Positions 1 to 28,628 of a stretch of 64,000 nucleotides of DNA are shown piece by piece. Below the pieces are notes generated by a model, which saw nothing but the letters and a program-made list of their open reading frames with translations, searched no databases and was not told where the DNA came from. Made by a program: the position numbers and the translations under genes. Origin of the DNA: Akkermansiaceae bacterium (GTDB lineage Bacteria > Verrucomicrobiota > Verrucomicrobiia > Verrucomicrobiales > Akkermansiaceae); the NCBI GenBank assembly GCA_051251915.1, contig JBPOGF010000001.1:1-64000 (forward strand). The letters are read 5' to 3'. Every line of letters begins with the position of its first letter. Position 1 is the stretch's first letter.

Positions 1-44
1 CAACCATAGACAGGCTTTTTCTGATAGTATTTTCTAACAGAAAT

Positions 45-287
45 TTATCGATGAGTACCCTTAAGTCCGTGCCATTCAGGACCGACCCCTGTTGCTTGAC
101 CCCTGTTGCTTGACGCTTTACTGTAGGCGAGGAAGTCGGCGGTTAGTTGGCAGCAGATGGCGTGGTAGCCTTGGTCGTCTGGGCCTACGTTGCATTGGCC
201 GTCGCGGTAGAAGCCGGTGAGGGGATCTAGGCTGCAGGGGATGAGTGGTTCTCCGAGGACGTTTTTGTTAGATCCAGTATTTTCCAT
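45..287 (-). pseudogene. DUF2237 family protein, 3'-truncated by a repeat element
   Basis: N-terminus NVLGEPLIPCSLDPLTGFYRDGQC...HAICCQLTADFLAYSK is typical DUF2237. The expected GNDLSTP...WCLCA half is replaced at ~115 by repeat-derived sequence. Confidence 0.8.
60..114. repeat. GACCCC-ended element terminus with 14-bp tandem duplication
   Basis: CTTAAGTCCGTGCCATTCAGGACC followed by (GACCCCTGTTGCTT)x2 at 84-97 and 98-111, then GAC; lies exactly at the DUF2237 breakpoint. Confidence 0.6.
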
Positions 288-329
288 GGTTAGAGACTAC
301 ACTTGTTGGGGTGATTCACCACTGATTTG

Positions 330-447
330 TTGGGTTGCTTGGGTTGTGCCCTGCGGGAGCTTACCACGAATCGGCACGAATGGGGTGGGCGATGAAACGT
401 TTTGAACCGCTGAATTCACTGAATGAACGCTGAACTTGGGTTGATGG
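330..447. repeat. Composite intergenic repeat (CACGAAT and CGCTGAA modules, CTTGGGTTG motif)
   Basis: ACCACGAATCGGCACGAAT and ACCGCTGAATTCACTGAATGAACGCTGAACTTGGGTTGATGG match modules at 8563-8681 and 12839-12921. Confidence 0.7.
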
Positions 448-790
448 ATTTTTTTGACCTCACTGCAAACCTAAATTCACTCTAGGAGGAGAGAGTGAGA
501 TCACGCAGAGACGTAATGGAATGAAGTCAAAAGGCACTGAAACTACGGAACAGGGTTGATGGTCGCGTATAAAGCCACGCGGTGGCGGGACTCACGCGAT
601 TAACCACGTGCAGCGTTGCTGTTTTACGTGGGGTAGATGTATTTTGAACTGCTGGATGCATCGAGTGATACTTAATTTTGATGATATTAAATCTGATCTC
701 TAGAAAGACAAATTATAAATTATAGGACTTGTTTCTTAACCGTGCTTTTTCTCCGTTGCTTTTTTATTTAATTAAGCTTAGATCTTTATT

Positions 791-3700
791 ATGTTAATAG
801 AGTCTCTTATGTCAGGAATTGGTGTGTCCATTTCAAGTTCATTATTAAAATTATGGTTAAAAGATAATGCACTAGCTTCTGATGTAACTGTAGATATAAG
901 TAAGATAATTATTACTAAGTTTTCAGACATATTTACACAAAAAAAAGTTAGGAGAACATTCGAAAATATTGGAGATCAAGCTGCCAAAAGTATTAGTAGT
1001 TTAATAAAAAAAGAGGCTTCTGGTATAAATGAAGATCGTCTTAAAATTATTGCAGCTGCAGCTAGCGAGACTTTGACGAATACCCCAATAGATATAGACC
1101 TATTAATTGATAAGAATTTACAGGATGAAAATTTGCTTTGCTATTTACTTGAACGAACGGGAGCGCAAGGAGGTAATCCAGCTTTGGCATTAAATACGAA
1201 AGGTCTTACAAATTATACTAAAGTTGAGACCGAATTGTATAGAAACCTGTTAAGTCATTCTGCTCAGATAATTGTGGACACCGCATCTAGTTTTCCCAAA
1301 TTTGATGTTAAGATTAACGGAGCTTTGTTGAATAAGTTAGAACATATTGCAGAAGAATTAATGGATGGTATGAATCTAATTGTTGAAGAGCGTTCAGATA
1401 GGTATGAGGGCGATTATAGGAATGCCTGCGTCAGAAAACATGATCAGTTAGAGCTCTTTGGAGTAGACTTAAATGAGGCAAATCAACGTTACAACCTTAG
1501 TGTAGCATATGTGACTTTGATGGTTGAAAGTAAGCAAAACAACTCTAGTAGTATAATGCTATCTGTTGAAAGCGAAACGGGTTGTGAGGATATAGGTAAT
1601 GATGCTGATTTAGATGTAAGAACTTCAATACAAGCTCATCAAGCATTACTCGAAAACCAGAGATTGTTCATAAGAGCTCCTGCGGGAGCTGGTAAAACAA
1701 CTTTACTTCAGTGGTTCACGGTCTTTTGCGCAGCTAGAAAGTTAGAAGGTGATTTGAAGCAATTTAATGGTTTTGTTCCTTTCTTTATAAAGTTAAGGGA
1801 TTGTGTAGATGGCAAGTCTACTAAAGACGGGTCATTTAACTTACCTGATATCTCAGATTTTGCATCTTGCAGTGTAAGTACTATTGGTAAATCAGCACCT
1901 GATAATTGGATTTATGACCGGCTCAAGTCTGGTAAAGCATTTGTTCTTATTGATGGCTTAGATGAAGTTACTGAGAATAAAAGAGAAGATGTGAAAAAAT
2001 GGTTAGGCGAGCTGGTGGAAACGTTTCCTGAGGTTCGTTATGTCGTCACATCGCGACCTCATGCTGCAGAAGAAGGTTGGTTAGATGCAGATAGCTTTAC
2101 AGATGCAGAACTGCAAGAAATGGAAACTAAAGATGTTTATGAATTTGTTGAGCATTGGCATGATGCAGTATCGGACGGGATTAATGCGCCAGAGGAGAAA
2201 GAGGAGGTAAAAGAACTTTCAAATGCACTTATTGAGAAGCTCTCAAAAAACCCTTCTATTCATAGACTTGCGACGAGTCCTTTATTATGTGCGTTACTCT
2301 GTGCTCTTCATCGGCAACGTGTACAGAATTTACCTAATGATAGATTAGAGCTGTATAGAGTTTGTGTAGAGATGTTTCTGAGGAGAGATGAAGAGCGTAG
2401 AATTGATGGTTCTGACTACATAAAAATTACCGATAGACAGAAATTTGAACTTCTACAAAAAATGGCTTGGTGGATGATATCAAATGGGAGGACAACTATA
2501 ACCCCTGAAGAAGCTGCAGAAAGATTTCACGATTACTATGATCTTTTGCATAGGGTCGATTCTATAGTGAATGCAGGTAAGAAGGTCACAGATTTATTTC
2601 TACAAAGAATCGGTATTATTAGAATGCTAGCCCACAGCAAGATAGATTTTCCGCATAGAACTTTTCAAGAATATCTAGCAGCTAGAGAGGCTGTGGATGG
2701 AGATCATACCGGGCTATTAGTTAATAATGCTCATGACGACCAATGGAGAGAAGTTTTTATACTAGCTGCTGGGTTACTTCCCCCTTTAAGGGCTGAGCAA
2801 ATGCTGGCAGAATTACTTGAGAAAAGTGATCTAGATGTAAAAAATCGAGAAACTCTTATTTTAACCGCAATTGCCTGTCTAGCTGTAGTAAATTCGCAAG
2901 CTAGTAAAGACTCAACGGTCTATAGAGAAATTAAGAAAAGACTCAACTCTATCCTACCCCCATCTAGTATGACAGAAGCCAAAACTTTAGCTGCGGCAGG
3001 CGATTTAGTAGTTCCATATTTAGAGCGACCAAGTTCGATGAATGTAATTAAAGCAAAGGCTAGTGTTAGAGTACTTGCTCTAGTAGGTACTGATTTAGCA
3101 CTTGAGACACTTAAAGCTTATGCGAATGATAAGCGCATAGGAGTATTAGATGAACTAGAAATGTCAGCGAAATTTGCAAGTAATTTTGAAGCTTATTCAG
3201 AGATTGTTTGGGCTAATAAAAGTAAAATTAATTTATCTTTTGAACAATGCTGTGATATTTCGTTCTTATCGAAAAATAATAATATTAGTAAACTATTATT
3301 ACAATATTCTGGTATCCAGAATATTGAAGCTTTAAGTCACACTACTAATATAGAATTTTTAGATATTAGTAATACAATAGTTGAAAATATTGAACCTATA
3401 ATCAATAATTCGGGATTAAAATTTCTGAATATGTCTGAAACAAATGTTGTGAAATTAGACCCACTAAGCAATATGACTAATTTAGCGCACTTAAATATAA
3501 CATATACCTCAATAAAAAGCCTCGCAGTCTTAAAACGATTAAGAAATCTTATACATTTAAATATATCCTATTCTGAAGTAGATGATTTGGAGGCTTTAGA
3601 AAATCATGAAAATTTGGAATATTTAAATATTAGTCATACAGATGTTTCGTCTTTAAGTGGTATTGTTAATAATAAAAGATTAGTGCATTTAGATATCTCT

Positions 3701-3961
3701 TCTACTCAGATAACAGACCTGGATTTAATAAGTGAATTTCCACTATTAAAGGAGTTGTTAGTATGTGATCAGTTTGAGAATCAAAAACAATTAATCAAGG
3801 ACTTTACGCCAATTATGAAATTAAGAAATCTTCAATATATACATATTCCAGATAACTGGGAAATAGATAATGAGGTTATAGAATGGTTTATAGAGACGGG
3901 TGTCAGATATAATAGATCTTGGTTAGAAAATTTAATTGTAGAGAACTTGAACGAAAATTAA
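791..3961 (+). CDS. NACHT-domain NTPase with helical N-terminus and C-terminal leucine-rich repeats (bacterial NLR-like protein)
   Basis: Walker A APAGAGKTT, Walker B VLIDGLDEV, sensor VVTSRP, PLLCALLC, FPHRTFQEYLAA, WREV. At least 7 tandem 22-aa LRRs (e.g. LEYLNISHTDVSSLSGIVNNKR). Strongly AT-rich compared with its neighbours. Confidence 0.9.
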   Translation: MLIESLMSGIGVSISSSLLKLWLKDNALASDVTVDISKIIITKFSDIFTQKKVRRTFENIGDQAAKSISSLIKKEASGINEDRLKIIAAAASETLTNTPIDIDLLIDKNLQDENLLCYLLERTGAQGGNPALALNTKGLTNYTKVETELYRNLLSHSAQIIVDTASSFPKFDVKINGALLNKLEHIAEELMDGMNLIVEERSDRYEGDYRNACVRKHDQLELFGVDLNEANQRYNLSVAYVTLMVESKQNNSSSIMLSVESETGCEDIGNDADLDVRTSIQAHQALLENQRLFIRAPAGAGKTTLLQWFTVFCAARKLEGDLKQFNGFVPFFIKLRDCVDGKSTKDGSFNLPDISDFASCSVSTIGKSAPDNWIYDRLKSGKAFVLIDGLDEVTENKREDVKKWLGELVETFPEVRYVVTSRPHAAEEGWLDADSFTDAELQEMETKDVYEFVEHWHDAVSDGINAPEEKEEVKELSNALIEKLSKNPSIHRLATSPLLCALLCALHRQRVQNLPNDRLELYRVCVEMFLRRDEERRIDGSDYIKITDRQKFELLQKMAWWMISNGRTTITPEEAAERFHDYYDLLHRVDSIVNAGKKVTDLFLQRIGIIRMLAHSKIDFPHRTFQEYLAAREAVDGDHTGLLVNNAHDDQWREVFILAAGLLPPLRAEQMLAELLEKSDLDVKNRETLILTAIACLAVVNSQASKDSTVYREIKKRLNSILPPSSMTEAKTLAAAGDLVVPYLERPSSMNVIKAKASVRVLALVGTDLALETLKAYANDKRIGVLDELEMSAKFASNFEAYSEIVWANKSKINLSFEQCCDISFLSKNNNISKLLLQYSGIQNIEALSHTTNIEFLDISNTIVENIEPIINNSGLKFLNMSETNVVKLDPLSNMTNLAHLNITYTSIKSLAVLKRLRNLIHLNISYSEVDDLEALENHENLEYLNISHTDVSSLSGIVNNKRLVHLDISSTQITDLDLISEFPLLKELLVCDQFENQKQLIKDFTPIMKLRNLQYIHIPDNWEIDNEVIEWFIETGVRYNRSWLENLIVENLNEN

Positions 3962-4040
3962 GAAATTAGTAAATAATAATAAATTGGAAATAAAAAAGTA
4001 TCGAGTTAGGTAAAAATGAGTATAGAAAGTTTGAAATTTA

Positions 4041-4110
4041 AATGCACTTCTGACCCCATGTTTTAACATAGTCCAAACAGTCAGTATGACTTACCCGAGA
4101 CCTGACTCCT
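4041..4110. repeat. Two GACCCC-like element ends downstream of the NACHT gene
   Basis: AATGCACTTCTGACCCC (4041-4057) and AGACCTGACTCC (4098-4109) resemble the GGACCGACCCC end at 79-89. Confidence 0.4.
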
Positions 4111-4176
4111 CTCCTCCTCTTTTTACATGAGCCATTACTTGCGCTGAGATGTGATGCAAATAAGTTGTATGAAACT

Positions 4177-4557
4177 ATGAATTCCATTTCCAAAGAAGAA
4201 TCGATTAGATGTGCCTTTTTCGGGGCGATTGTTGCAGATGCGCTCTGCTTGGGGAGTCATTATGAGTATGATGCGGTCAAAATTTATGAGGCTTATGGGT
4301 GCCGGCCGATTGAAAAATTTATGTCGCCTGGTGAGCTGATGGGTGGGCAGACGCATGGGATAGGGTGGGGAGAGAGGAATTATCATCCGGGGAAGAAGGC
4401 GGGAGGGAGCACTGACTATGGAGACTATAATATTCTTGTACTAGAACATTTGGCTGCCACTGCGGAGCCTGTGAGGGGGGGAGCGTGGCTGAGATTATTC
4501 CGCATTGGATGGATCGGTTGGAGAATGAGACTGAGTGATTATTGGCTGGTTAGATAG
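4177..4557 (+). pseudogene. ADP-ribosylglycohydrolase family fragment (truncated, likely frameshifted)
   Basis: AFFGAIVADALCLGSHYEYD...NYHPGKKAGGSTDYGD matches the ARH N-terminus. Only ~100 aa of a ~300-aa family is present. G7 run at 4475-4481; a REP-like copy follows. Confidence 0.75.
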
Positions 4558-4570
4558 TTGGATTTTTATT

Positions 4571-4680
4571 GCGCCACTTTCAGGGCTTGTTTTTTTTGTT
4601 TTGGGGGAGTCCTAGGGCGGCGTTGCATCGTTGATGCTGTCTTGCCCCAGGCTGTTATGTGTCGCCCTCGTTGGGGCTTG
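4571..4680. repeat. REP-like palindromic element, copy A
   Basis: CGCCRCTTTCAGGGCTT...CCTAGGG..GCATCGTTGATGC..CCCCAGGCTGTTATGTGTCGCCCTCGTTGGGG; shared with 6431, 8418 and 12943. Confidence 0.85.
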
Positions 4681-4822
4681 CTTGGGTTGTCGCGTATAAC
4701 GGTTGAGCGGCTCTAAAGGAGTGGGTGTGATTCCGGAGGAGTGGAGGGAGACGCTTGATCAGTGTGGGTATTGTGATGAGTTGTTGGGTAGGTTGCCTTT
4801 GCTGAGGGGGTAATCCGTTAGC

Positions 4823-4906
4823 GGTGATCGGTGATCGGTGACTGGTGACTGGTGACTGGTGACTGGTGACTGGTGACTGGTGACTGGTGACTGGTGACTG
4901 GTGACT
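4823..4906. repeat. Heptamer tandem repeat (GGTGATC)2(GGTGACT)10
   Basis: Counted directly; ends 8 bp from the stop codon of the aldo/keto reductase. Confidence 0.95.
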
Positions 4907-4914
4907 TTCGGCCC

Positions 4915-5853
4915 TTACAGCGCCTGAATGAGCTGTAGCATTTTCTTGCGCTCTGCTGGGGTGGGTATTCTTCCGCGTAGTGCTCCTACGTTATCAATCA
5001 CATGCTTTTCTTTTGTGGTGCCTGGGATGATGACGGTTACGTCAGGATGGCCTAGGATGTATTTGAGGAAAAATTGTCCCCAGCTATTCACTCCAAATTC
5101 TTTAGACCACTCTGGAATTTCTATCCCCTTGGCTACTGTAGAGCTAAATAACTTACCACGTGCAAAAGGGACATTCACCATGACGGCAACGCCTCGGTCA
5201 CGTGCCATGGGTAGCACCTTTTCTTCGATCGAGCGGTCTAGTAGGTTGTACTGGCATTGGATAAAATCTACCTTGTGATCCTTCATCACCTTGGTGGCCT
5301 CATCATTCAGATTGGGCCTAAAATGTGTGATGCCGACGTAGCGCACTTTACCTGCCTCCTTCAGTGCATTGATCGTCTCTAGATGAGCTTCGGTGTCTTT
5401 TAAATTATGCACCTGGAGTAGGTCAAATTTTTTCATGTTAAGATCTTTAAACGACTGCGTATTCTGATCTATACCAGCCTGTTTTCCGTGAATGCTGGTC
5501 TTAGTGGCGAGGAAACATTTCTTCCTTGCTTCAGGACCTAGTTCATCTAGCGCTCTACCGATTACTTGCTCTGCATCTTTATAAGAAGGGGAAGTATCGA
5601 TGACTGTGGCTCCTTCTCGTAACAGGGCTGCAATCGCATTTTTTCTCTGGTTGAAGTCTGCCTTTAAATTACCAAAATCCATCGCTGTTCCTAGACCAAC
5701 AGCAGGTATCTTTTCACCTGTAGAATGGATGGTGCGATGGAGTAGGGGGCTAACTTTTGGTTTAGAATCAGTAGGATTCGCTATGCCCAAGCCACTGGTA
5801 GCAAGGAGACCTGCAGTGGCGCCGGATAGTTTGAGGAATTCTTTGCGTGTCAT
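4915..5853 (-). CDS. Aldo/keto reductase with Tat-like signal peptide
   Basis: IPAVGLGT, IDTSPSY, ATK, DLLQVHN, GKVRYVGIT, IPGT AKR motifs; N-terminal TRKEFLK plus hydrophobic stretch. Confidence 0.9.
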   Translation of the reverse strand: MTRKEFLKLSGATAGLLATSGLGIANPTDSKPKVSPLLHRTIHSTGEKIPAVGLGTAMDFGNLKADFNQRKNAIAALLREGATVIDTSPSYKDAEQVIGRALDELGPEARKKCFLATKTSIHGKQAGIDQNTQSFKDLNMKKFDLLQVHNLKDTEAHLETINALKEAGKVRYVGITHFRPNLNDEATKVMKDHKVDFIQCQYNLLDRSIEEKVLPMARDRGVAVMVNVPFARGKLFSSTVAKGIEIPEWSKEFGVNSWGQFFLKYILGHPDVTVIIPGTTKEKHVIDNVGALRGRIPTPAERKKMLQLIQAL

Positions 5854-6197
5854 AGTAGTGTTAGGATAGTTTTGAATGAAGATTTAAGGTGTAATACCAC
5901 TCCGCAAAACAGATCAGACAAATGGTTTTATGAGGTATTTTAGATAGTGTTTCACATTTAAGGTGGAAAGCGGGTGCTTTTTGTTTCTACCTGCGTTATT
6001 CCTCAGTCATGATGCCCACATCATTCTTTCGTCATGCCTTGATAGAAATAAAAATCACTCCGCCATTTGTCTGATTTGTTTCACTACATGGTATTATCTT
6101 AAATTGGCACGAAAACTTACCTCTAGCAAATGGAAAAATATAGGGAGCGAAGCTTTCTTACAAGGTATTCACCTGCATTGGTTTACTTTGCTTAGGG

Positions 6198-6372
6198 GGT
6201 GATCGGTTAGCGGTGATCGGTGGTTGGGATGCTGGGGGTGGTTGGTGTGCGTCTGCGGTTGGGTTGATTGGTGGGGCTGTGTTTGAGGGCTTGACGGGCT
6301 TGGGTTGTGGGTTGGACCCAGGGTTGCCACCCTGGGCTGGTATATATTTCCCCGTTGGGGAAGCTTGGGTTG
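6198..6372. repeat. Composite repeat (heptamer module plus CCCAGGG/CCCTGGG hairpin), intergenic copy
   Basis: About 90% identical by manual alignment to 11042-11213 inside the helicase gene. Confidence 0.9.
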
Positions 6373-6430
6373 TCGCGTATAACGGCTTTGCCGCGCGCGA
6401 TTTAGTTGGGTAATGAGGTTGTTGGGTTTT

Positions 6431-6543
6431 TGTGTCGCCGCTTTCAGGGCTTGGGTTCTTGGGTGGGGGGTGTCCTAGGGTTGCGTTGCATCGTTGATGC
6501 TGTCTTACCCTAGGCTGTTATGTGTCGCCCTCGTTGGGGCTTG
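6431..6543. repeat. REP-like palindromic element, copy B
   Basis: Near-identical to copies A and C; CCTAGGG...CCCTAGG stem enclosing GCATCGTTGATGC. Confidence 0.9.
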
Positions 6544-6693
6544 CTGGGGTTGTGTGCTTGGGTTGATAGGAGATTGGAAATCTCGGGCACGTTGCTTGGG
6601 GTGTCGCATATAACGGGTTTTTCCGCACGCGGTGGTTTAGTTGATTGGAAGAGGGGACTTGGAGTTTTCTGGGGGTAGGCGGATGTTGTGGTG

Positions 6694-7995
6694 TTATGCT
6701 GAAAGCATTTTTAGGGTCTGGGTAGATCGTTGTTTGATGGCGGTTGAGATTTGGTGGATGACGGGGTGCTTGATGCCTTTTGAATGAAGTTGTTGTTCTA
6801 GTAGTGCGGCAACCTGTGGAGCTTCTTCTGCTAGGTGTCGTATTCGTGCTATGAGTTGAGCTGGTTTTATGCGTAGTTGCTTGGCGCATGTGTGCCAGTG
6901 GCGGAGTTCGATTTGTTTGAGCTTGTAGCTAGTGCCAATTTTCATCGCAAATTTTACTTTGTGCGGATTGTAAATGTTTGGGTATGGCAGTGCACTGGCG
7001 ATGTCGTAAAGTGGAGCGAGTCTAGTGACTGTTTTACCGCTGCTGAGTATGGAGTAGTTTTTCGCATGGGCATCAGTTCCTACGATCAGGTAGTTGAGTA
7101 TGATGGCGTCTGCTAATTTTAGAATGTCTTGGTAAGCATCGCTTGAGATAGACCATATTTTTTCTGCAATATCGTTTATCGAAGGACCGCCATCGGACTG
7201 ATACTTGAGGTGTGGGAGAACTCCAAGTGCTTGGCAAAAGTCTTCTTGGTGGACTCTGTGGCAGTGACCCTCATGAAAGAAACGATCGTAGCGTGTTACG
7301 ACGATCACTGGAATCCCTGCGCAATGGATGACCTCAGATTCTGCTACAGACATGCCTAGGGCTTCTGCTAATTTTAGGCAAAAATGTTCGTTTTCCGCAA
7401 AGCCATCAAATTCTCCGAGTGCTGGTTTGAGTATGTGGGTGGTAGGGGTGAGTCCGCTCGGGATACCCCATTGACCGGTCAGAGGAGATTTATAGAGGGC
7501 TGTTTTTGGTTGAGCGCCGGCTAGGCTAAATTGGCCTTGATCTGCGGCTGTGCGTTGTAAGCTCTGATTATCACGGATGCTGAGAATGAGTTTATCTAGT
7601 TGATCTTCATCGAGCCAATCAATTTGGTCGATTCGGTCATGATGGTTTGTGTTTAGTAGTTCCGCTTCTCGATCTTCTGCGATGAATTGGATCGCTCCAG
7701 GGCAATCTTGACCTACATGATTTAGTAAGCGGAAGACATTACGGGAGGAGACGTGGAATTGTTTTCCATATTGATCGAGGATGCTTTGGTTGTCTGGTAA
7801 TAAGCCCCATAAATAAGCTTCTACTAGAGAGTGTGAGAATATGCTTTCAGCTAGTGGCATGGATGCAGATAGAGCAAAGCTTTCTGCTGACTGTAGCCAG
7901 CTGGACGCGTAATGAAAGCTGAGACGGTTGTCTGTGTAGGTCACAGTTCCTAGCTTCTGCTGATTGGCAATGATACTGAGAGATTCACTTTTCAT
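6694..7995 (-). CDS. hipA: HipA family Ser/Thr kinase toxin
   Basis: LSASMP, LLPDN, VGQDCPGA, P-loop FSLAGAQPK, THILKP, NEHFC, RYDR, HQEDFCQALG, GTDAHAKNYS, LAPLYD. Confidence 0.95.
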   Translation of the reverse strand: MKSESLSIIANQQKLGTVTYTDNRLSFHYASSWLQSAESFALSASMPLAESIFSHSLVEAYLWGLLPDNQSILDQYGKQFHVSSRNVFRLLNHVGQDCPGAIQFIAEDREAELLNTNHHDRIDQIDWLDEDQLDKLILSIRDNQSLQRTAADQGQFSLAGAQPKTALYKSPLTGQWGIPSGLTPTTHILKPALGEFDGFAENEHFCLKLAEALGMSVAESEVIHCAGIPVIVVTRYDRFFHEGHCHRVHQEDFCQALGVLPHLKYQSDGGPSINDIAEKIWSISSDAYQDILKLADAIILNYLIVGTDAHAKNYSILSSGKTVTRLAPLYDIASALPYPNIYNPHKVKFAMKIGTSYKLKQIELRHWHTCAKQLRIKPAQLIARIRHLAEEAPQVAALLEQQLHSKGIKHPVIHQISTAIKQRSTQTLKMLSA

Positions 7996-8275
7996 CGCTA
8001 GAGACTAGGTGTTTTGGTTTAGAGCTTAAGTTATTGATATACATCTCAGAAATGCTCTGAGGTTCTGGTGGCTTCTGGGCGATGAGCTGGACTCCGAGTG
8101 CCTTGAGTGTGCGGAACACTAGGGCGATTTCCACAGTCTGCTTTCCTTTCTCTAAGCTGATCAACCAATCGCGGCTGACTCCAGAACGGGTGGCTAGTTC
8201 TGCTTGTGTCCAACCACGGTTCTGCCGCTCTTTTTTTACGAGATTTGCAAGATCATTAACGTTGATAAGATTCAT
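7985..8275 (-). CDS. hipB: HipB-like Xre/Cro HTH antitoxin
   Basis: ERQNRGWTQAELATRSGVSRDWLISLEKGK HTH; overlaps hipA start by 11 bp. Start reassigned to ATG 8275 because the upstream extension covers the operators. Confidence 0.85.
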   Translation of the reverse strand: MNLINVNDLANLVKKERQNRGWTQAELATRSGVSRDWLISLEKGKQTVEIALVFRTLKALGVQLIAQKPPEPQSISEMYINNLSSKPKHLVSSDEK

Positions 8276-8294
8276 TAGAATCTCTATATAACAT

Positions 8295-8367
8295 TGTAGT
8301 CGAACGGCGACAAGGGTAAAAAGAAGGTGAACGTCTACATTTATGTTGGTGTAGGTGAACGTCGACT
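8295..8367. promoter_or_regulatory. Three putative HipB operators
   Basis: TGTAGTCGAACGGCGACA (8295-8312), AGAAGGTGAACGTCTACA (8322-8339), TGTAGGTGAACGTCGACT (8350-8367): 18-bp pseudo-palindromes at 27/28-bp period directly upstream of hipB. Confidence 0.7.
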
Positions 8368-8417
8368 TTAGAATGTGCAAATTGGGTAGGAGTTCTTATG
8401 TTGTTTTTTTGGGGTTT

Positions 8418-8528
8418 TGTGTCGCCGCTATCAGGGCTTGGATTTTGGGTGGGGGTGTTCCAGGGTTGCGTTGCATGGTTGATGCTGTCTGACCCTGGGC
8501 TGTTATGTGTCGCCCTCGTTGGGGTTTG
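8418..8528. repeat. REP-like palindromic element, copy C
   Basis: Direct repeat of copy B; similarity extends into GCTGGGGTTGTGTGCTTGGG. Confidence 0.9.
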
Positions 8529-8562
8529 CTGGGGTTGTGTGCTTGGGATGATGGAACTTTTT

Positions 8563-8681
8563 ACCACGAATCTTCACGAATCTTCACGAATGTGCTTGCT
8601 GCTGCGACCTGCGGTGCTGGACCGCTGAAGGCGCTGAATTACGCTGAATTACGCTGAATTACGCTGAACTTGGGTGGATGG
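8563..8681. repeat. Short tandem modules (CACGAATCTT)n and (CGCTGAATTA)n joined by GACCTGCGGTGCTGGACC
   Basis: Read directly; the 18-bp linker recurs at 12839. Confidence 0.85.
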
Positions 8682-9113
8682 GTAGGGAAACTTGGGTTGT
8701 GTGCTTGGGTCATTTAGGGGGTGGTGGGGGCTTGGCGGTTGGAAACCTCCGCCAGGTGTTGGGCTAGATGGGGGAGATGGATTGTAGGGTGAGGATGGGT
8801 TCTTGGGATTTATTGGATTCTATTAGGTCTAGGAGGGCGGTGAGCGCTGAGTCGTGGACTTCGATCATAGTAAAGGAATCGAAGCCTTTAGGATATTGAG
8901 CGGAATAGTCTATTCTGGTCTATTCTGTTAGGGTTGTAAGGTATACCTTTAAGATAAAAGGGTTGTTTTATTTGTGTGAGTTTTGACAGCCGAGATCCTC
9001 CTCAGTTGGCATGATTACTGCTTATTTTTGAAGACTTGACCAATATATGGTTTCAAAAGAGGTTGTCTCGTCCTGATTCTTATGATGCGACAACTGATGA
9101 AAATTAATAAAAA

Positions 9114-9824
9114 ATGAAGAATATTAAACAACAAACAATGAAGGGTGAAAGACAGAGTTTACTTAGCAGGCCTACGCGTCCAATTGCAACGATCGTCTCA
9201 CTAATGGCAATGTTACAGGTATCAGAGGCGACTCTCTCTGTTACTGTGACTGGCGATGCATTAGGCAATGGTTCTACTTGGGTATTTAATGGTACTTCAG
9301 TAGTGACTCTAAGTAGTGATAATGAACTAGAAGAATTCGACGCAGAAAAAAATGTGAATTATTATTTTCATTCTAGTGGAGATTTCGATGGGAACTATAC
9401 AGATCAGTCAATTTACTCTACTAAATATTACAGAGGATTCACTATGGATGGTGGTACGGTAGAGGGATCTACTTCAGGAGGATTTACATTTGACGGACTT
9501 TTAGTTGATGGAGATGGAGGTGGAGCTGCAGCTGGAGGTGATGATTTTGGCTGGTTATTGGGTGACCAAAGTCCTCATACTTTTGTTGCGGGAGAGACGC
9601 TCACGTTTACGAATTATACCTTGGTGACTGATCTTGATATTACAACATTTGGTTTTGATGCTACTAAGATAGATAATAATGGAGACACCTTTACCGTAAG
9701 TTCTGAATCTGAGCCTATGGGTTTTTTGACGATGACATTTACCGCTGTTCCAGAACCATCTAGCACGTTGTTGCTAGGGTTAGGGGCGATGACGTTTGTT
9801 ACGCGTCGTAAACGTAATCAGTAA
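9114..9824 (+). CDS. PEP-CTERM sorting domain protein
   Basis: C-terminal VPEPSSTLLLGLGAMTFVTRRKR; signal peptide-like N-terminus. Confidence 0.92.
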   Translation: MKNIKQQTMKGERQSLLSRPTRPIATIVSLMAMLQVSEATLSVTVTGDALGNGSTWVFNGTSVVTLSSDNELEEFDAEKNVNYYFHSSGDFDGNYTDQSIYSTKYYRGFTMDGGTVEGSTSGGFTFDGLLVDGDGGGAAAGGDDFGWLLGDQSPHTFVAGETLTFTNYTLVTDLDITTFGFDATKIDNNGDTFTVSSESEPMGFLTMTFTAVPEPSSTLLLGLGAMTFVTRRKRNQ

Positions 9825-9981
9825 ATTGTTCTAATATAAGGGCAGTATCCTTTATTAATTTTTAGAGGTTACTGCTTTTGTATTATCGCGATTGTGGGGA
9901 TTATTCATTTGAGTTCCTTAATCTATGTGACCTGCTGTGTATTTTTCAAGTGTGGAGTGCTTCTTGATAGGAGCTGTATTA

Positions 9982-12714
9982 TCAGGTTGTTGCTATGGGG
10001 GCGATTGTCTGAAGGATGAGGACTGGTTCTGTGGATTTGTTTGATTCTGTTAGGTCTAGGTGGGCGGTTAGGGAGTAGTCGTTGTGGAGCTCGTCGTCGG
10101 TGATGGTTTGGGTTATTTTTAGGAGGTTGGGGTCGTTGGTTTCTGTCATTGAAAAATGCTTTTTGTTGCGGGCTTCTGGGTCTAGGCGGATGTTGTGGTG
10201 GTCTGTGAAGTAGTCGTCTAGGATGGGGTCTAGTCGGGCGATGGTCCAGGGGGTGCTGTCTGGGTCGGTGGGTTGGAAGAGGGTGAGGAGGTCTGTTAGG
10301 TTGTCGTGTGCTAGGTGTTTGATGGCGGTGAAGATTTTTTCTCGGACTAGTTTTGTTAGGTTGGTTTTGTCGTGGGTGAAGGGGTGGTTGGAGGTAAGTT
10401 TTTTCTTTTCTTGAGGCTGGTAGTCTGGGTTGCGCATGGTTTCCCATTCGTCGATTAGGGATGAGTCTACGTTGATGAGGTGGTCTTTGAGGTAGGTTTC
10501 TGCGTCTAGGACTTCTTCTGTTTTGTGGGACTGGGGGACGGTTTGGGAGAGGGTTTTGTAGACGTCTGTGAGGTGGCGTAGGAGGATGGCTTCTGAGCGT
10601 TCTAGTTTGTAGTGTTTGATGTAGTCTTCGAATGACATGTAGTCTGCGAACATTTCTCTGGCGACGGATTTGGGGCGGATGGATTCTGAGCTGATCCAGG
10701 GGTGTTTGGCGCGGAAGGTGTTGAAGGTGTCGTAGATGTAGTTTTTTCCGGGCATGGGGTGGGTGACTTCTTCGAGTTTTTCCATGCGGTCGTCGTATTC
10801 GACTCCGTCTGCTTTCATTTCTGCGACGAGTTCTGATTTGGCTTTGTTGACTTGTGCTTTGAGGATGGTGGCGGGGTTTTCGTGGATGGCTTCTACTAGG
10901 GAGAGGACGTTGAGGACGTATTTTGGGTCTTCTTTGTCGAGTTCAGGGATGGCGTCTAGGAGGTAGAGGCCTAGGGCTTGGTTCATGGAGAAGTCTTCTT
11001 GGAGGTCGATGTTTAGGCGGACCTTTGGGGGTGAAGTGATCGGTGATCGGTTAGCGGTGATCGGTGGTTGGGGTGCTGGGGTTGGTGGGTGTGCGTCTGC
11101 GGTTGGGTCGTTGGTGGTGCTTTGCTGAGGGCTTGACGGGCTTGGGTTGTGGGGGGGACCCAGGGTTGCACCCTGGGCTTTTATATTTATCCCCGTTGGG
11201 GAAGCTTGGGTTGGTGGTGATTGGGGAGAGCTTCGCTCTGATATTGGGATGATGGATAGGACGCGGCCGCGGACTAGGGAGATGAACATGGAGCGGGCTA
11301 GGGTGCGGAGTTTTTTCTTGGAGAGTTCTGTGCCGTGGGAGGCTGAGATGATGCGTTTGAGTTCTGTGCAGCCGTCTTGGTTTTGGCGGGAGAGGACGTT
11401 TAGGAGGGTGTTGTGTTGGAGTTTGAAGCTGGAGATGAGGGGTTCTGGGGGGGAGGTTTGGAGTTTGTTGAAGGTGTCTGCGGTCCAGGCTACGTAGCCG
11501 AATTCTGGGGGTTTCTTTTTGACGATTTTTTTCTTTTTGGTGGAGGCTGCGGCTTTGGCTTCTAGGCGGAGGTTTTCTATTGCGTGTGCGGGGGCTTGGG
11601 CGACGACGTAGCCGATGTCATCGAATCCTCTTCTTCCGGCTCTTCCGGCGATTTGTTTGAAGTCGCGGACGGATAGGATTTTCATGCCTGAGCCGTCGAA
11701 TTTACAGAGTTGGGTGAAGAGGACTGAGCGGATGGGGACGTTGATGCCGACGCCTAGGGTGTCTGTTCCGCAGATGACTTTGAGGAGGCCTTGCTGGGTG
11801 AGTTTTTCTACGAGGACGCGGTACTTGGGGAGTAGTCCGGCGTGGTGGATGCCGATGCCGTGGCGGAGGAGTTTGGAGATTTCTTTGCCGTATGGGGAGC
11901 GGAAGTTTGCTTGGTGGAGGGCTTCTGAGATTTGTTTTTTTTCTTCTTTGGTGCAGACGTTTGTGGAGAGGAGGGACTGGGCGGATTCTGCGGCGGCGCG
12001 CTGTGAGAAGTGGACGAGGTAGACTGGGGATTTGTTGGTCTCTACGAGTTCGGTGACTTTTTCTGTGAGGGGGATTTCTGAGTAGTCGAATTCTAGTGGG
12101 ACGGGGCGCTGGTCTGAGATGACGAGGGAGGTTTCGGCTCCGGTGAGGTCTGTTAGTTCTTTTTGGAAGAATTCGGTGTCGCCGATGGTGGCGGACATGA
12201 GGAGGAAGCGGGACTGGGGGAGGGTGAGGAGGGGGAGCTGCCAGGCTACGCCGCGGTCGGTGTCTGAGTAGTAGTGGAACTCGTCCATGATGATGTCTTG
12301 GACGTTGGCTTCTGCGCCTTCGCGGAGGGCGAGGTTGGAGAGGATTTCTGCGGTGCAGCAGATGATGGGGGCGGTGGAGTTGACGGTGGCGTCACCGGTG
12401 ATCATGCCGACGTTTTCTGGGCCGAAGGTGGAGCAGAGGGAGATGAATTTTTCGTTGGCGAGGGCTTTGATGGGGACGGTGTAGTAGGAGGTGCGGCCTT
12501 GGCAGAAGGATTTGTAGTGGTGGGCGAGGGCGACGAGGGATTTACCGGAGCCGGTGGGGGTGTTGAGGATGACGTTGTTGTCTGCGAAGAGCTCTAGGAT
12601 GGCTTCTTCTTGGTGGTCGTAGAGGTCGATGTTGGCTTCGATGAGTTGTTCGAGGAAGTGGTTTAGGATGTTGTCGGGGGTGAAGTTTTGGATTGGTGGT
12701 TTGGTGAGGTGCAT
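9982..12714 (-). CDS. Ski2-like DEAD/DEAH box RNA helicase (DUF3516 family) with in-frame repeat insertion
   Basis: [52 protein letters not shown]; Pro/Ser/Thr-rich insert at codons ~497-561. Confidence 0.92.
11032..11226. repeat. 195-bp in-frame repeat insertion within the helicase
   Basis: Contains a copy of 6198-6372; bounded by TTGGGG at 11025-11030 and 11221-11226. Removing it gives ...[11 protein letters not shown]... Confidence 0.85.
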
Positions 12715-12724
12715 TTTGAGTAAG

Positions 12725-12921
12725 GGAAAAGGTTAAAGGAAAAAGGGTTTTTGGTGATCGGTTAGCGGTGATCAGTGATCGGTGGCTTGGGTTGATGGAA
12801 TCTTGGGTTGGGTGCTTGGGTTGTGGTGCTTGGGTTTTGACCTGCGGTGCTGGACCACGAATCTGCACGAATTTTCACGAATTTTCACGAATGTTGCTTG
12901 GGTTGGTGGAACCTTGGGTTG
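12725..12921. repeat. Composite intergenic repeat (GGAAAAGGTTAAAGG, GGTGATC, CTTGGGTTG and CACGAAT modules)
   Basis: Modules shared with 330-447, 4823, 6198, 8563 and 14090-14142. Confidence 0.8.
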
Positions 12922-12942
12922 GGTGCTTGGTAGGTGGAATTA

Positions 12943-13053
12943 TGTGTCGCCGCTTTCAGGGCTTATGATTTTTTTGTGAACATCCCAGGGCTGAGATGCA
13001 TCATTGATGCTGCTTGACCCTGGGCTGTGTATGTGTGGCCCTCGCAGGGGCTT
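12943..13053. repeat. REP-like palindromic element, copy D (more diverged)
   Basis: TGTGTCGCCGCTTTCAGGGCTT...CCCAGGG..GCATCATTGATGC..CCCTGGGCTG. Confidence 0.8.
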
Positions 13054-13060
13054 TCTTGGG

Positions 13061-14077
13061 TTATTTGGTGAAGTTTTGCTGGATGTAGGCTTGGCAGAGG
13101 TTGGTGGTGGCTTGGATGGCTTTTTTGTGGGTGCGCTCGGTGGAGTGTGAGGCTGCTACGCCGGGGCCGATGAGGCCTACGCGCATGTCGTTGCCGGCGC
13201 GGAGGGCTGCGGAGCCGTCTGAGCCGTAGAAGGGGTAGACGTCTTGTTTGTAGGGGATGTTGTTTTCTTTTGCTAGTTTTACGAGGGTTTGGCGCATGCG
13301 GTAGTCGTATGGGCCGGTGGAGTCTTTGGCGCAGATGGAGCATGAGACTTCGTTTCCTTCGCAGGCGTCGCCAAGGACTCCCATGTCGATGACGAGGAGG
13401 TCTGTGATGGTGGGTGAGTAGCCGCAGGTGCCGCCGTGGCCGACTTCTTCGTAGTTGGAGAAGAAGATTTCTACGGGGATGTTTTGGTCGATGTATTGTT
13501 TGGCGAGTTGGAGGAGGATGAAGCAGCCGGCTTTGTTGTCTAGGAAGCGGGATTTGATGAAGCCGGAGTCCATTTCTTGGTAGTTGACGTCGAGGCAGAT
13601 GATGTCTCCGATGCAGATGCCTAGTTTGTCGATGTCTTGGCGGTTGTAGACTTCTTGGTCGAGGCGGATGTGCATGTTGGAGATGCTGCGGGGGGTGGAT
13701 TCTCGTTTGTTGTTGGTGTGTGATGAGGGGTCATTTAGGAGGATGGTGCCGGTGTAGATGTGGTCATCTAGGGTGCGGATGCGGACGTATTCGCCTTCTG
13801 CGCCGGAGAGTGAGAGGCCGCCGAGGAGGGAGAATTTGAGGGTGCCGTTGGAGTTGATGCCTGAGACGATGGCGCCGAGGGTGTCTACGTGGGCTGCGAT
13901 GGCTAGGCGTGGGTTGTCGCCGAAGGTGCAGCGGACGGCGCCTTTGTTGGTGAGTGTGGGTTTGTAGCCTAGGTCTGTGAGGTAGTTGACGATGTAGTCG
14001 CAGGCGTGGTAGGTGAATCCGGATGGGGAGTCGATTTCTAGGAGTTCTCTGAGTGGTGTGTAGTCGGTATTAGGCAT
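13061..14077 (-). CDS. M42 family metallopeptidase
   Basis: SPSG, AHVDTLG, SRFLDNKAG, NYEEVGHG, DMG, YGSDG, SHSTER. Confidence 0.92.
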   Translation of the reverse strand: MPNTDYTPLRELLEIDSPSGFTYHACDYIVNYLTDLGYKPTLTNKGAVRCTFGDNPRLAIAAHVDTLGAIVSGINSNGTLKFSLLGGLSLSGAEGEYVRIRTLDDHIYTGTILLNDPSSHTNNKRESTPRSISNMHIRLDQEVYNRQDIDKLGICIGDIICLDVNYQEMDSGFIKSRFLDNKAGCFILLQLAKQYIDQNIPVEIFFSNYEEVGHGGTCGYSPTITDLLVIDMGVLGDACEGNEVSCSICAKDSTGPYDYRMRQTLVKLAKENNIPYKQDVYPFYGSDGSAALRAGNDMRVGLIGPGVAASHSTERTHKKAIQATTNLCQAYIQQNFTK

Positions 14078-16428: not shown

Positions 16429-19400
16429 GTGGGCATGATAGGTATACATTTTAGCAGGCTAGCGATGATTTTGACGGCGGTGGTGGGGGTGTCTCATGGT
16501 GAGTTGTGTATGGCTTCTGAGCGGGCGGTAGCTTTTAAGGGTGTGACTGAGATGGTGGGTGACTGGCAGGGGGATCAGCATGTGTATGTGCGTGGGAAGC
16601 TGGGGGTGCCGCAGAAGTCGCTGGATGCTTTTGAGAAGTGGCTGGATGAGAATGGTAAGAACTGGACGGTGATCTTGATGCAGAATGCGCAGGGGCAAAG
16701 CTGGAAGGATACGCGTGGGGTGAGTTATTATGGGATGGATGCGGTGGAGAATGCGGTGGGGCGTGGGTTGTCTAACAATGAGAAATTTTCTGAGCTGTTA
16801 GATGCGGATGATGAGAAGCGGAATGGGGCGATTTTTGTGTTATTTTTGGAGGAGAGGAAGTTTTCTTATTTTGGGGAGGCTGCGTATGATGCGAGGTTTC
16901 TGGGGGAAGATGCGTGGGTGGGAAATCTGGATCATAGTGCACGACAGGCGATGCGGGGTGGTAGTGGTGTGGTGAATGCTGCGAAGGATACGATTAAGGT
17001 GATTGATGCGAAGCTGAAGAGGGCGAAGACGGAGGAGGTTCAGCGGAGGGAGCGGGCGAAGGTGGAGAAAACTGAGACTCAGGCGTGGGTGATGCGTGAG
17101 GCGAAGGCGATGGAGGTGAGTTTGAAGTCGCTGGCAAAGCAGGCAGGGGAAATTAAGGCGGTTGCTGGGGCTGAGGGTGGAGATTTGGCGAATCCGCCGT
17201 TGAATGATTGGCAGCAGGTGATCAGTGAGGCGCAGGGGAATCCGAATCCGTTTTTGGCGAAGCAGGCGTTGGTGGAGGTGGGCCGTGAGATGGGGAGGCA
17301 GAAGCAGGCGGTTGTGGATTGGTATGGATTTTCTGATGAGATGGCGAAGCTTGAAGGTGAGTTGGGGGAGTTTAGCGCTGATGAGAGTTTTCCGGAGGCT
17401 GGTGGGAGGTTGAGTGATTTGGAGAAGACAATTTTGTTGGCGAAGGGGGCGCATGCTAAGGGGGAGAGGAGTCATCATGAGATGCTTGAGAGTGCGCGGA
17501 ATGAGTTGGGGTATTTGACTGTGACTAATGAGCGGTTGCGAGGTGAGAGGATACGTAAGGAGGCGTATGAAGAGGAGCAGAGGGAGGTGGCTAGAATGAT
17601 AGCTTATCAGCGTAAGCAGACGATGAAGACGACGGCGATAGCTGGCGGGAGTGCTGGCGGGGCGGCGTTGTTAGGGTGTGGGGTATTTTCTAACAGGCGT
17701 AGGAAGAAGCGTAAGTTGGTGGCGGAGCAGTTGTATGGTGAGTGGAAGGAGGCGATGGGGTTGCGGGTGGATAAGCTGTTTGCGGTGATGGATAGGGCTG
17801 CTATTGTGGTGGGGTCTGAGCGTGATCTACCTGAGCGAGGGTATCAGGGGGAGACGCTGGATAGGTCTCTAACGGCTATTAAGAATGTGGATAAGGCGTT
17901 TGTTCTGACAGCGAGTGTGGATAAGGCGTTGGAGGAGGCGAAGGGGTTGATTTATCCGAGTAATGTTGGTTCTAAATCTGTGAATGTGTTTTCGCGCGGG
18001 CGCTATGATGATGCGCTGGAGTTGTTAGAGAGAAAGCCGCTGGGGAGTCATCTGCCGCTTGATGAGATTAAGGTGATGGATAGGGGTGAGGCTCAGATGT
18101 TAGGTAGTAGGGAAAATGCGGAGAACGTGGAGTTGAGCTTTACGGAGTTGATAGCAGAGTTTGATAGGACTGTGGATGAGGCTGTGGCTGAGCTGGATGT
18201 GGTGGAGCATGCTTGGGAGACTATAGCGGCGAGAACTGAGACGTTGGGGAATGCTTTGAATGAAATTTCAGGGAAGGATGAGGAGTTGGAGAATTTGGCA
18301 ATGGATGATGATTTGTTTCGGATGGATGCGTTGTTTGAGGAGTGGTTGCCGGTGGCTGAATTTCATCATTTAGAGGGGATCGAAGTGGGTAAAACTGATC
18401 CGGTGACGGCGCTTATTGAGGAGGTGACTCATGGTGATAGGATGGCTGGTGAGATGGCGGAGATGATTGGTAATGTGGTGGAGTTTCGTGATTCTGAGAT
18501 GGATGAAATTGTCGATGGGGCGAAGAATTTAAATGAGTTGCACCGGAGGAATGATTGGGTGCGGGAGCGTATGGAGGGACTGGATGATGAGTTGGATGAG
18601 TTGTCTAGGAGAGGGATGAGGGAGACTGTTAAGGACGGGGTAGTGAGTCAAAAAGAAGTGATGTTTGCGCTTAATGAGGAGGTGGCACAGGCTTGTAAGT
18701 TGGCGAAAATGTCGTTGGCGGCGATTCCTAAGTCGATAGAGGCGGCGCGTGAGAAGACGGTTTCTGCGCGGTCTGAAATAGCGACGTCGCTGGATCTAAC
18801 AGCGGATGAAATTCTTAAGGAGAGAGATGCTTGGAATCCGGATGTTATGTTGGCGGAGGCTGAGAGGCTGCGTGTTTCTACTCAGCTTTGTTTGGATGAT
18901 GGGTTGACGCAGCAGGCGCAGTATTTGGCTGATCAGTCGATGAAGAATATTGATGAGACGAATGCGGTGGTTGATGATGCGTTGCTAGCTAATAGTGGCT
19001 ATGAGCGGGAATATGCGCATGTGGGTGAACTTTTAGCGGAGGCTGATGGTCTGAGGGATGCTGGTGTGGGGATCATGTCTGATCTGGTGGGTGAGTATAG
19101 TAGGGGGGCGCTTCAGGTGGACCCTGAGAATAAGGCAGCAGGGAATTTTATTGAGGTTGAGGAGGCTCTGCAGGGGGCGCATTCTCAGCTTAGTAAGGAT
19201 ATAGTGACGGCTAAGGGATATCAGCAGAAAGGCTGGGTGCTTCATGCTAGTCAGCACTTGGTAAATGCGAAGGAGGCCTATGAGCATATACGTGGGATGC
19301 ATGAATTTATTGCAACTAGGCAGAGAGAGTTGGCTGATCAGGAGCAGAAGAATATTCTTACACTTGGGACGCATGAACGGGATCTGGCAAGTCTTAAGGA

Positions 19401-27610: not shown

Positions 27611-27746
27611 TGAAGAGTGGTTTAGGGACGATCAATCCTTGCTTCTATCTGGTTAGTCTGTTTTTCTCTGTGACATACTTTAGATCTTGGTTGAAAAACC
27701 AGCATATCGATTATCACTCATTTATTATCACCCACATTATTCAATT

Positions 27747-28628
27747 ATGGCTATTCCACAATCTACTATCGCGCTCGTTTATGATTATGACCAGACGCTG
27801 AGTCCGCGCTATATGCAGGACGATGTACTTTTTCCGGAGTTTGGGATCAATCCGGCGTCATTTTGGGAGAAGTGTAATGTTTTGGTGAAAGAAAAGAAAT
27901 GGGATGGTGAGTTGGCTTATCTTAAGTGTTTGCTGGATTATTTAGCGATGGATGGTGTTTCGAATGATCGGCTCACTGAGTTGGGTGCTAATCTGACATT
28001 TTTTCCGGGGCTTCCTGAGATGTTTGAGGAAATAGAGGGGCTTTGTCTTACGGATCTGCATAAGGCGGCGGGGATAAAGGTGGAGCATTATATTGTGTCT
28101 TCTGGGTTGAAGGCATTGGTGGATGGTAGCAGGATGGCTAAGCATTTTAAGAAGATCTATGGTTGTGAATTCGGCGAAGACGAAAATGGGGTGATTAGTT
28201 TTCCTAAGCGTGCGATTTCTCATACGACTAAAACGCAGTTTCTTTTCCGGATCAATAAGGGTCTGCTGGAGTATGGTGAGGATGTGAATGACCACATGCC
28301 TGAGGCTGTGCGTCCGGTTCCATTCCAGAATATGGTGTATGTGGGTGATGGCCCTACTGATGTGCCTTGTTTTACGGTGATGCAGAAAAATGGTGGTCAT
28401 GCCATTGCTGTGTATAATCCTGAGGATGAGACGAATAGGAGCTTTGATAAGTGTTTTCAGATGTGTGCTCATGCGAATCGTGTCAAGCACATCGCGCCGG
28501 CGGATTACAGGCGAGGGAGTCATTTACGCCTGATTCTTGAAAAAATGGTTAGGGAAATGGCCGATAATATTCTATCAAAGCGTCAGAGCGAGGTTGATAG
28601 CGGTAAGGTTTCAGCCCCACAATTTTAG
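27747..28628 (+). CDS. HAD-superfamily hydrolase
   Basis: YDYDQTL, IVSSG, KTQFLFRINKG, YVGDGPTDVPC. Start reassigned to ATG 27747. Confidence 0.88.
   Translation: MAIPQSTIALVYDYDQTLSPRYMQDDVLFPEFGINPASFWEKCNVLVKEKKWDGELAYLKCLLDYLAMDGVSNDRLTELGANLTFFPGLPEMFEEIEGLCLTDLHKAAGIKVEHYIVSSGLKALVDGSRMAKHFKKIYGCEFGEDENGVISFPKRAISHTTKTQFLFRINKGLLEYGEDVNDHMPEAVRPVPFQNMVYVGDGPTDVPCFTVMQKNGGHAIAVYNPEDETNRSFDKCFQMCAHANRVKHIAPADYRRGSHLRLILEKMVREMADNILSKRQSEVDSGKVSAPQF

Follow-up and report, generated by a model that had tools for sequence, protein, structure and literature searches.

The closest described systems to the gene reported here are the bacterial NACHT (bNACHT) proteins, which are related to the nucleotide-binding leucine-rich repeat receptors (NLRs). 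The preprint by Kibby et al. (bioRxiv 10.1101/2022.07.19.500537) tested 27 bNACHT genes and reports that several confer phage defence. It counts leucine-rich repeats (LRRs) among the bacterial NACHT sensor types and names a domain NNH1; the legend of its Fig. S3 places NNH1 among the domains of the tested proteins, with the bearer unspecified. The same preprint describes the LRR-bearing bNACHT16 of Vibrio campbellii as highly similar to human NLRs, and reports that its winged-helix His and Thr mutants stop the growth of Escherichia coli. In a second preprint (bioRxiv 10.1101/2024.12.17.629029), bNACHT11 forms a heptamer upon binding phage proteins and kills via its extreme N-terminus, which is intolerant of additions. 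A third (bioRxiv 10.1101/2024.11.07.622273) describes a Bell/HeLo/CC superfamily, in which helices cup an N-terminal hydrophobic membrane-targeting helix, the glycine of which is essential in Bab. Here we analyse an NNH1-NACHT-LRR gene at positions 791..3961 (forward strand) of a 64,000-nucleotide stretch, hereafter the window, from a marine Akkermansiaceae bacterium (assembly GCA_051251915.1). The window covers the initial 64 kb of contig 1 (JBPOGF010000001.1) in a genome of 4.0 Mb and 36 contigs, with a contamination estimate of 0.21%.

The open reading frame (ORF) encodes 1056 residues and is intact, free of internal stops. In the Pfam scan, NNH1 (PF22733) was found at residues 9-190 (E 6.6e-22; score 78.9 bits, cut-off 27), NACHT (PF05729) at residues 292-458 (54.9 bits against 26.7), and LRR_4 (PF12799) in six stretches above the cut-off in the C-terminal part. 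The repeats recur at residues 876, 898, 920, 942, 964, and 986, with a period of exactly 22 residues. NNH1 thus scores above its gathering threshold in a position N-terminal to NACHT, and the protein has the three-part build of the bNACHT proteins: a presumed N-terminal effector, a central NACHT module, and a presumed C-terminal sensor. The NACHT module contains the P-loop APAGAGKT (residues 296-303), the Walker B motif FVLIDGLDE (384-392), the sensor-1 motif TSRP (420-423), and the winged-helix His motif FPHRTFQEYLAA (620-631), the His of which is the H622 equivalent. The catalytic and winged-helix motifs are all retained. The P-loop carries two substitutions relative to the family, G296A and S300A; nevertheless, APAGAGKT, including A296, matches the classical PROSITE P-loop pattern, [AG]x4GK[ST]. 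Ahead of the NACHT module lies a conserved element (YEGDYRNACVRKHDQLELFGVDL...LSVAYVTL), in which G224, S237, A239, Y240, and L243 are invariant in 40 sequences. The protein is an intact cytoplasmic member of the NNH1-NACHT-LRR family of bNACHT NLR-related proteins.

A full-length AlphaFold2 model, built from 40 aligned sequences, has a mean predicted local distance difference test score (pLDDT) of 80.9. Its best matches in the PDB are NLRC4 (4kxf, E 6.6e-18), NLRP3 (7pzc), and NOD2 (5irm), at 12-15% identity. A first-pass annotation, made from the letters of the window, had described a protein of animal-NLR-like build with a helical N-terminus of about 200 residues, an intact NACHT module, and a C-terminus of tandem 22-residue LRRs. 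The domain assignments bear out each of these parts, and the NLRs as top structural matches of the full-length model therefore show that this description of the protein was correct. The annotation had also called the N-terminus devoid of a recognisable enzyme motif. This was an overstatement, as the region is recognisable as the named Pfam domain NNH1.

How does the window protein compare with the described systems? With bNACHT16 it shares NACHT and C-terminal LRRs, and it retains the motif corresponding to the His motif that is toxic there when mutated. bNACHT11 has a NACHT-driven oligomer and an extreme N-terminus as the presumed death effector, and NNH1 is likewise strictly N-terminal. The two differ in their terminal parts: bNACHT11 has a 45-residue extension with an MDPIT motif and a SNaCT sensor, whereas NNH1, of 200 residues, and LRRs take these places in the window protein. 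The animal NLRs share the layout of NACHT and C-terminal LRRs as well as the winged-helix His; in contrast, they carry CARD or PYD where the window protein carries NNH1, and the window LRRs are of the 22-residue internalin type.

The family is large. Of the 8000 proteins that a word-indexed search scored, 611 qualified as relatives (E<=1e-3), and among the relatives listed, PF22733 is present in 118 of 119 and PF12799 in 103 of 119. In contigs taken from one genome per species, 497 of 601 candidate stretches encode relatives, and the first 285 residues match 757 representative clusters at E<=1e-3. Relatives occur in the Pseudomonadota, Planctomycetota, Verrucomicrobiota, Bacteroidota, Chloroflexota, Acidobacteriota, Myxococcota, and, in large numbers, Actinomycetota; a Poribacteria metagenome-assembled genome (MAG) also encodes one. 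The window protein is a diverged new member of this already named family, the full architecture is common, and the novelty that the first-pass annotation had seen in it is not upheld. Across the family, the NACHT region is best conserved (mean pairwise identity 0.52), followed by the helical spacer between NACHT and LRRs (0.45), and the LRR region is the least conserved (0.28) and the most variable in length (86-415 residues).

The composition of the gene sets it apart from its genome. Its guanine-plus-cytosine (GC) content is 0.347, and 0.25 at third codon positions, as compared to 0.472 (standard deviation 0.032) for the genome, in which only 4 of 7790 windows of gene length are equally AT-rich. 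The AT skew within the gene is +0.00 to +0.11, and the GC skew is 0.02-0.29; the flank between 4251 and 9000, by comparison, has a marked T excess on the forward strand, its windows having AT skews of -0.10 to -0.49. The local G/T skew, which had been reported as absent from the gene, is therefore lost in part: the T excess is gone, while the G excess is retained.

The host RpoB is 88% identical to that of Rubritalea species and 83-85% identical to those of other Verrucomicrobiales; judged by this protein, the host is a Rubritalea-like verrucomicrobium. No homologue of the window protein was detected at E<=1e-10 in any of 24 congeneric genomes, 18 of which are at least 90% complete. In four of 16 genomes of the same order, the matches are partial, confined to NACHT or LRR singly and 23-36% identical, and the genome itself has no second full copy of the gene. 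The closest proteins anywhere, at 45-50% identity over 84-96% of the length, include those of Candidatus Thiosymbion (nematode ectosymbionts), Leucothrix arctica, and an Alteromonadaceae MAG. These gammaproteobacterial relatives have the same three domains in the same order; the window copy differs from them in being verrucomicrobial, far more AT-rich than its host, altered at G296A and S300A, and placed on a long terminal branch.

The tree was obtained by a quick IQ-TREE search without bootstraps, on the first 790-800 residues of the window protein and 45 of 80 fetched loci; the 35 loci left out are mostly additional actinobacterial copies and fragments. In this quick tree, in which the letter make-up of the window row is unusual, five gammaproteobacterial rows form the sister group of the window protein, with a Shimodaira-Hasegawa-like approximate likelihood ratio (SH-aLRT) support of 99, and two other verrucomicrobial rows are placed elsewhere. 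The link to actinobacterial NACHT N-terminal helical families that had been drawn in the first-pass annotation was right in kind, as many relatives are actinobacterial, but the nearest ones are gammaproteobacterial. The foreign GC content, the absence from the 24 congeners, and the gammaproteobacterial sister group together support the horizontal acquisition that had been proposed at first sight. These results do not identify the donor: the end branch is long (0.74), and the nearest relatives are just 45-50% identical.

The horizontal acquisition is thus well supported, and the gene lies in a single-gene AT-rich insert at about 729-4130. The left border lies at 728/729: positions 105-728 are 93.6% identical to positions 703-79 of contig 4, and this paralogy halts exactly there, at ..TATAGGAC, where contig 4 runs into an insertion sequence (IS)-like end. 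The right border lies within 3962-4130 and is inexact, as the GC content climbs from 0.27-0.33 to 0.46 across 3750-4500. Besides the NACHT gene, the insert has no further ORF of at least 50 residues. The element-like ends of the first-pass annotation were not recovered: the sole inverted repeat bracketing the gene is an A/T-rich 16-mer with 88% agreement (754-769 and 3988-4003), and no tRNA gene was found in positions 1-12000 of the window. No empty site was found among the congeners, in which no hydrolase homologue lies within 1.5 kb of DUF2237 and no DNA matches the insert borders. A tblastn search of plasmids returned 83 records, none covering at least 80% of the query; most of these matches begin at residue 204 or later, and thus lack NNH1. 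Among phages, just two weak NACHT-only matches were found.

Since the window begins at a contig end within a repeat, the region is rich in repeats, and the genome is in 36 contigs, we considered whether the AT-rich piece could be an assembly chimera or a contaminant from outside this chromosome. In each of two public sequencing runs, one contig covers positions 620-4678, spanning both borders of the insert, with 0 differences. The depths of these spanning contigs are 48.2 and 22.2, close to those of the neighbouring contig (45.2 and 25.2), which argues against an assembly chimera. Among the joints listed for the run contigs, none skips just the insert; the listed joints have short sides of 21-40 letters and lie in repeats. 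With the low contamination estimate in addition, we regard such an artefact as extremely improbable.

The gene has no evident partner. Across the neighbourhoods of 80 related loci, gene families recur within one genus at most, and the largest non-self neighbour cluster comprises six loci, all from Amycolatopsis. The gene therefore works, or at least travels, alone, in agreement with the earlier description of it as a stand-alone gene.

What, then, does the protein do? We propose that it is probably a one-chain NLR-type conflict sensor, acquired horizontally, in which the variable LRR senses a foreign ligand, the NACHT module oligomerises, and NNH1 kills or arrests the cell. The three activities are attributed to the window protein by analogy with bNACHT and NLR proteins that have been studied. 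At rest, the protein would be closed, with NACHT holding a nucleotide that the winged-helix His motif contacts. The variable LRR solenoid, of 22-residue repeats, would then bind a foreign ligand, most likely a phage protein. The LRR is the presumed ligand-binding part because it is the least conserved and most length-variable region of the family. Following ligand binding, the NACHT modules would oligomerise as a wheel, and finally, the clustered N-terminal NNH1 domains would arrest or kill the cell, by abortive infection.

Several observations weigh against this proposal. No enzymatic or pore fold was recognised for NNH1 by structure and profile searches, and the killing step is therefore without structural support. 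A full-text literature search for NACHT together with NNH1 returned one relevant paper, the preprint by Kibby et al., in which the domain is named, and no functional study of NNH1. The comparison with PADLOC that the first-pass annotation had suggested gave 0 families at E<=1 in PADLOC-DB v2.0.0, and the protein thus falls outside the defence families of that database. The surroundings do not form a clear defence island, since they contain just a HipA/HTH pair, generic helicase matches, and a PDC-S34 candidate 24 kb off. The window protein deviates at 11 of the 149 columns that are at least 90% conserved, as compared to a family median of 5 (range 0-19), and two of the 11 fall in the P-loop (G296A and S300A). 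Finally, both bridging runs belong to a single study, whose reads may be those from which the window itself was assembled.

The number of conserved positions lost, higher than in the median member, would also fit a recently acquired passenger that is unexpressed or decaying and has no function in this host. The strongly foreign, unameliorated composition and the surroundings rich in broken genes and repeats point the same way. Moreover, no promoter-like site was called upstream of the start on the forward strand, and no terminator-like site downstream of the gene; the promoter scan, however, uses the sigma-70 consensus only and is blind to other promoters. None of the four runs listed is an RNA run. 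On the other hand, the 11 deviations lie within the range of the family, a frame of 1056 codons remains stop-free in 35% GC DNA, and every catalytic and winged-helix motif is retained. A functionless passenger is therefore quite improbable, and we retain the conflict sensor as the preferred reading.

Next, we investigated the NNH1 domain. Residues 1-220 were modelled separately, from an alignment of 46 N-termini that all match the NNH1 profile. This model has a pLDDT of 84.5, and the domain is all-helical in both AlphaFold2 models. With the 220-residue model, Foldseek found no match at E<=1e-3 in the PDB; the highest Z from VIA-align was 6.4, a value that helical models reach by noise, and its hits are mostly single long helices. 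No match at E<=1e-3 was found in BFVD, and none of at least 0.9 in the ESM Atlas, in which the top scores were 0.86 (unnamed) and 0.84 (NNH2). A prediction of NNH1 self-association with four copies of residues 1-220 yielded a median of 0.43 as compared to 0.35 for the control, and gives no answer either way.

Animal NLRs signal through adaptor domains. As they are the best structural matches of the window protein, and as NNH1 matches neither an enzymatic nor a pore-like fold or profile, NNH1 might be a non-toxic adaptor, like the CARD, PYD, and Death-like domains, that upon clustering recruits or activates an effector encoded elsewhere in the genome. Against this, the 80 loci have no conserved neighbour. 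Furthermore, the gene moved alone as a single-gene insert, and therefore any partner must either have been in the genome already or be universal. In E. coli, hyperactivated bNACHT16, an LRR protein that may or may not carry NNH1, is toxic. Considering these points, an adaptor role is unlikely, and we favour NNH1 as the part of the conflict sensor that would act on the cell.

The position and the first helix of NNH1 bear on how it might do so. NNH1 begins no more than three residues from the protein N-terminus in 125 of 149 representatives, and its first helix is its most conserved part: E4 is kept in 93, G11 in 103, K16 in 102, W22 in 117, and D25 in 96 of 121 sequences, with the family consensus M-x-LLETL--G-G-AIAK--LK-WLKD. 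In the window protein, no stretch of 19 residues is more hydrophobic than residues 1-19 (Kyte-Doolittle 1.45). We also looked for stand-alone NNH1 proteins among the 42 of 149 representatives that are shorter than 450 residues. A P-loop is present in 24 of the 42, and most of the short proteins stop within or just before NACHT, and therefore look like fragments.

NNH1 thus has the conserved hydrophobic helix at the extreme N-terminus that characterises the HeLo-type modules. The HeLo, Hell, Bell, CC-HeLo, and MLKL-4HB domains, as described in the source cited above, are likewise small all-helical N-terminal domains on NLR-type proteins, with a conserved, hydrophobic, glycine-containing first helix. 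In contrast, NNH1 is about twice as long and has no profile or fold match to them (HeLo-type Pfam families matched 0 of the 46 N-termini), and the resemblance is one of layout only. The possibly membrane-acting effector and the defence role suggested in the first-pass annotation are thus putative: indirect features of the helix speak for the former, but fold and profile searches connect it with no membrane-targeting family. A released-N-terminal-helix mechanism of the HeLo, Bell, or MADA kind would fit NNH1 at this level of resemblance. A tentative extension, which we hold to be possible but rather doubtful, is that NNH1 is an unrecognised bacterial branch of the N-terminal-helix executioners (HeLo/Hell, Bell, plant CC with MADA, and the MLKL 4HB) mounted on NACHT-LRR. 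LRR ligand binding and the NACHT wheel would then free the G/W-marked first helix from its helical sheath, and the clustered helices would breach the inner membrane as a one-chain "resistosome".

The habitat of the relatives and the type of the repeats raise another explanation: a regulatory or host-interaction STAND protein, of the "eukaryote-like" LRR type found in marine surface- or host-associated bacteria, with no role against phages. Nematode ectosymbionts, Leucothrix, and marine MAGs are the sources of the nearest relatives, and the Poribacteria MAG has one as well; the LRR region gave internalin and Roco LRR matches in a PDB profile search, and the lack of a PADLOC match would agree as well. 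Nevertheless, the 22-residue repeat type is all that the window protein has in common with internalins, as the NCBIfam class 1 internalin models reach 49-59 bits, far below their cut-offs of 1050-1600 (e.g., 59 against 1275). The LRR is fused behind a cytoplasmic NTPase, and the N-terminal helix is predicted not to be a cleavable signal peptide, because it is part of the helical NNH1 in the AlphaFold2 models. The patchy spread over many phyla and the variable sensor fit a conflict system. We therefore consider a host-interaction role decidedly improbable, and the conflict sensor remains our proposal.

Table 1. Features of the inserted gene and its immediate surroundings (positions in the window)
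Feature	Positions	Strand	Basis
End of multi-copy IS-like repeat at contig start, truncating DUF2237	1..77		repeat comparison among contigs
DUF2237 gene fragment, first 61 codons homologous, remainder replaced	45..287	-	PF09996 profile positions 1-68 of 115
Native upstream region of DUF2237, ending at left insert border	288..728		contig 4 paralogy
AT-rich leader of inserted gene	729..790	+	GC 0.31-0.35; without counterpart in contig 4 paralogue
NNH1 domain, residues 1-200, presumed effector; conserved helix (residues 2-23) at start	791..1390	+	PF22733, AlphaFold2 model
Conserved pre-NACHT element, residues 205-243	1403..1519	+	invariant residues; short strands in model
NACHT module, residues 286-640 (P-loop, Walker B, sensor-1 TSRP, winged-helix His)	1646..2710	+	PF05729, motifs
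Helical spacer between NACHT and LRR, residues 641-795	2711..3175	+	helices 650-806 in AlphaFold2 model; identity 0.45
Putative LRR sensor, residues 796-1056, 22-residue internalin-type repeats and C-terminal helical cap	3176..3958	+	periodicity, six LRR_4 stretches
AT-rich 3' tail of insert	3962..4130		GC gradient
ADP-ribosylglycohydrolase 5' fragment	4165..4557	+	PF03747 profile positions 2-66 of 287; 24.2 bits, below cut-off 26.2

The insert is flanked by two gene fragments, as the first-pass annotation had noted, from a DUF2237 gene and an ADP-ribosylglycohydrolase gene (Table 1). They are not scars of the insertion, because their 5' ends face the inserted gene and their breaks lie on the far sides; other events broke them. 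DUF2237 occurs three times in the genome, as two full-length frames of 130 residues on contig 4 (C4:521 and C4:5024; C4:4962-5209) and as the truncated window copy, whose homology to the full-length copies of contig 4 and the congeners ends at residue 61. In the congeners, DUF2237 is present in 6 of 24 genomes. The IS-like repeat at the contig start is 100% identical to positions 1-77 of contig 5, and it recurs at C3:1-76, at C9:1-85, and at the ends of contigs 25 and 29; the flanks of the copies diverge after ...GTGCCATTC. Contig 4 ends, beside its C4:79-703 paralogue, in the opposite end of an IS-like repeat. The element breaks the assembly, and its interior is absent from the 36 contigs. 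The flanks just outside all copies look like GGGaCaGaCCC and may thus represent either a target that the element prefers or a terminal motif.

On the other side, the homology of the hydrolase ends near 4540, where a local G/T-rich repeat starts (4542). Such intergenic repeats occur at 4542-4704, 6406-6567, and 8393-8552 (also at about 12919-13062) and are 62-91% alike. Parts of them gave weak, sub-threshold matches to the Rfam Acido-Lenti-1 RNA (RF01687), of 27.8-29.3 bits, as compared to the threshold of 37, at 4611-4678, 6317-6362, and 6474-6541. A tandem array of about 14 heptamers, GGTGACT/GGTGATC, lies at 4809-4906, between the hydrolase remnant and an aldo/keto reductase gene. Read by eye, positions 4723-4812 on the forward strand could encode the C-terminal end of the hydrolase (…IPEEW…); if so, the gene has lost its middle and not its 3' end.

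The aldo/keto reductase gene adjoining the insert (4915-5853, reverse strand) has no match at E<=1e-30 in the 24 congeneric genomes, and the variable region therefore exceeds the NACHT insert. A HipA-like kinase toxin gene (HipA_C and Couple_hipA; 6694-8380, reverse strand) overlaps an upstream helix-turn-helix (HTH), HipB-like gene, and the two form a type II toxin-antitoxin pair located 2.7 kb from the NACHT gene. Farther away, a 313-residue ORF (27687-28628, forward strand) strongly matches the PADLOC candidate family PDC-S34 (E 4e-90). ORFs of 1285 residues (16429-20286, forward strand) and 391 residues (20368-21543, reverse strand) match neither Pfam, at E<=1e-3, nor PADLOC.

Taken by itself, the locus is of modest weight, a sound but fairly ordinary finding. 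It illustrates cleanly how one NLR-type gene has passed from phylum to phylum unaccompanied by genes of a mobile element, here into a verrucomicrobium from a lineage now seen in marine Gammaproteobacteria. NNH1-NACHT-LRR proteins are among the bacterial proteins most like animal NLRs, and they are very widespread. Should NNH1 turn out to be an executioner that targets membranes, the way in which plant and fungal resistosomes kill would be linked to the bacterial NACHT-LRR receptors.

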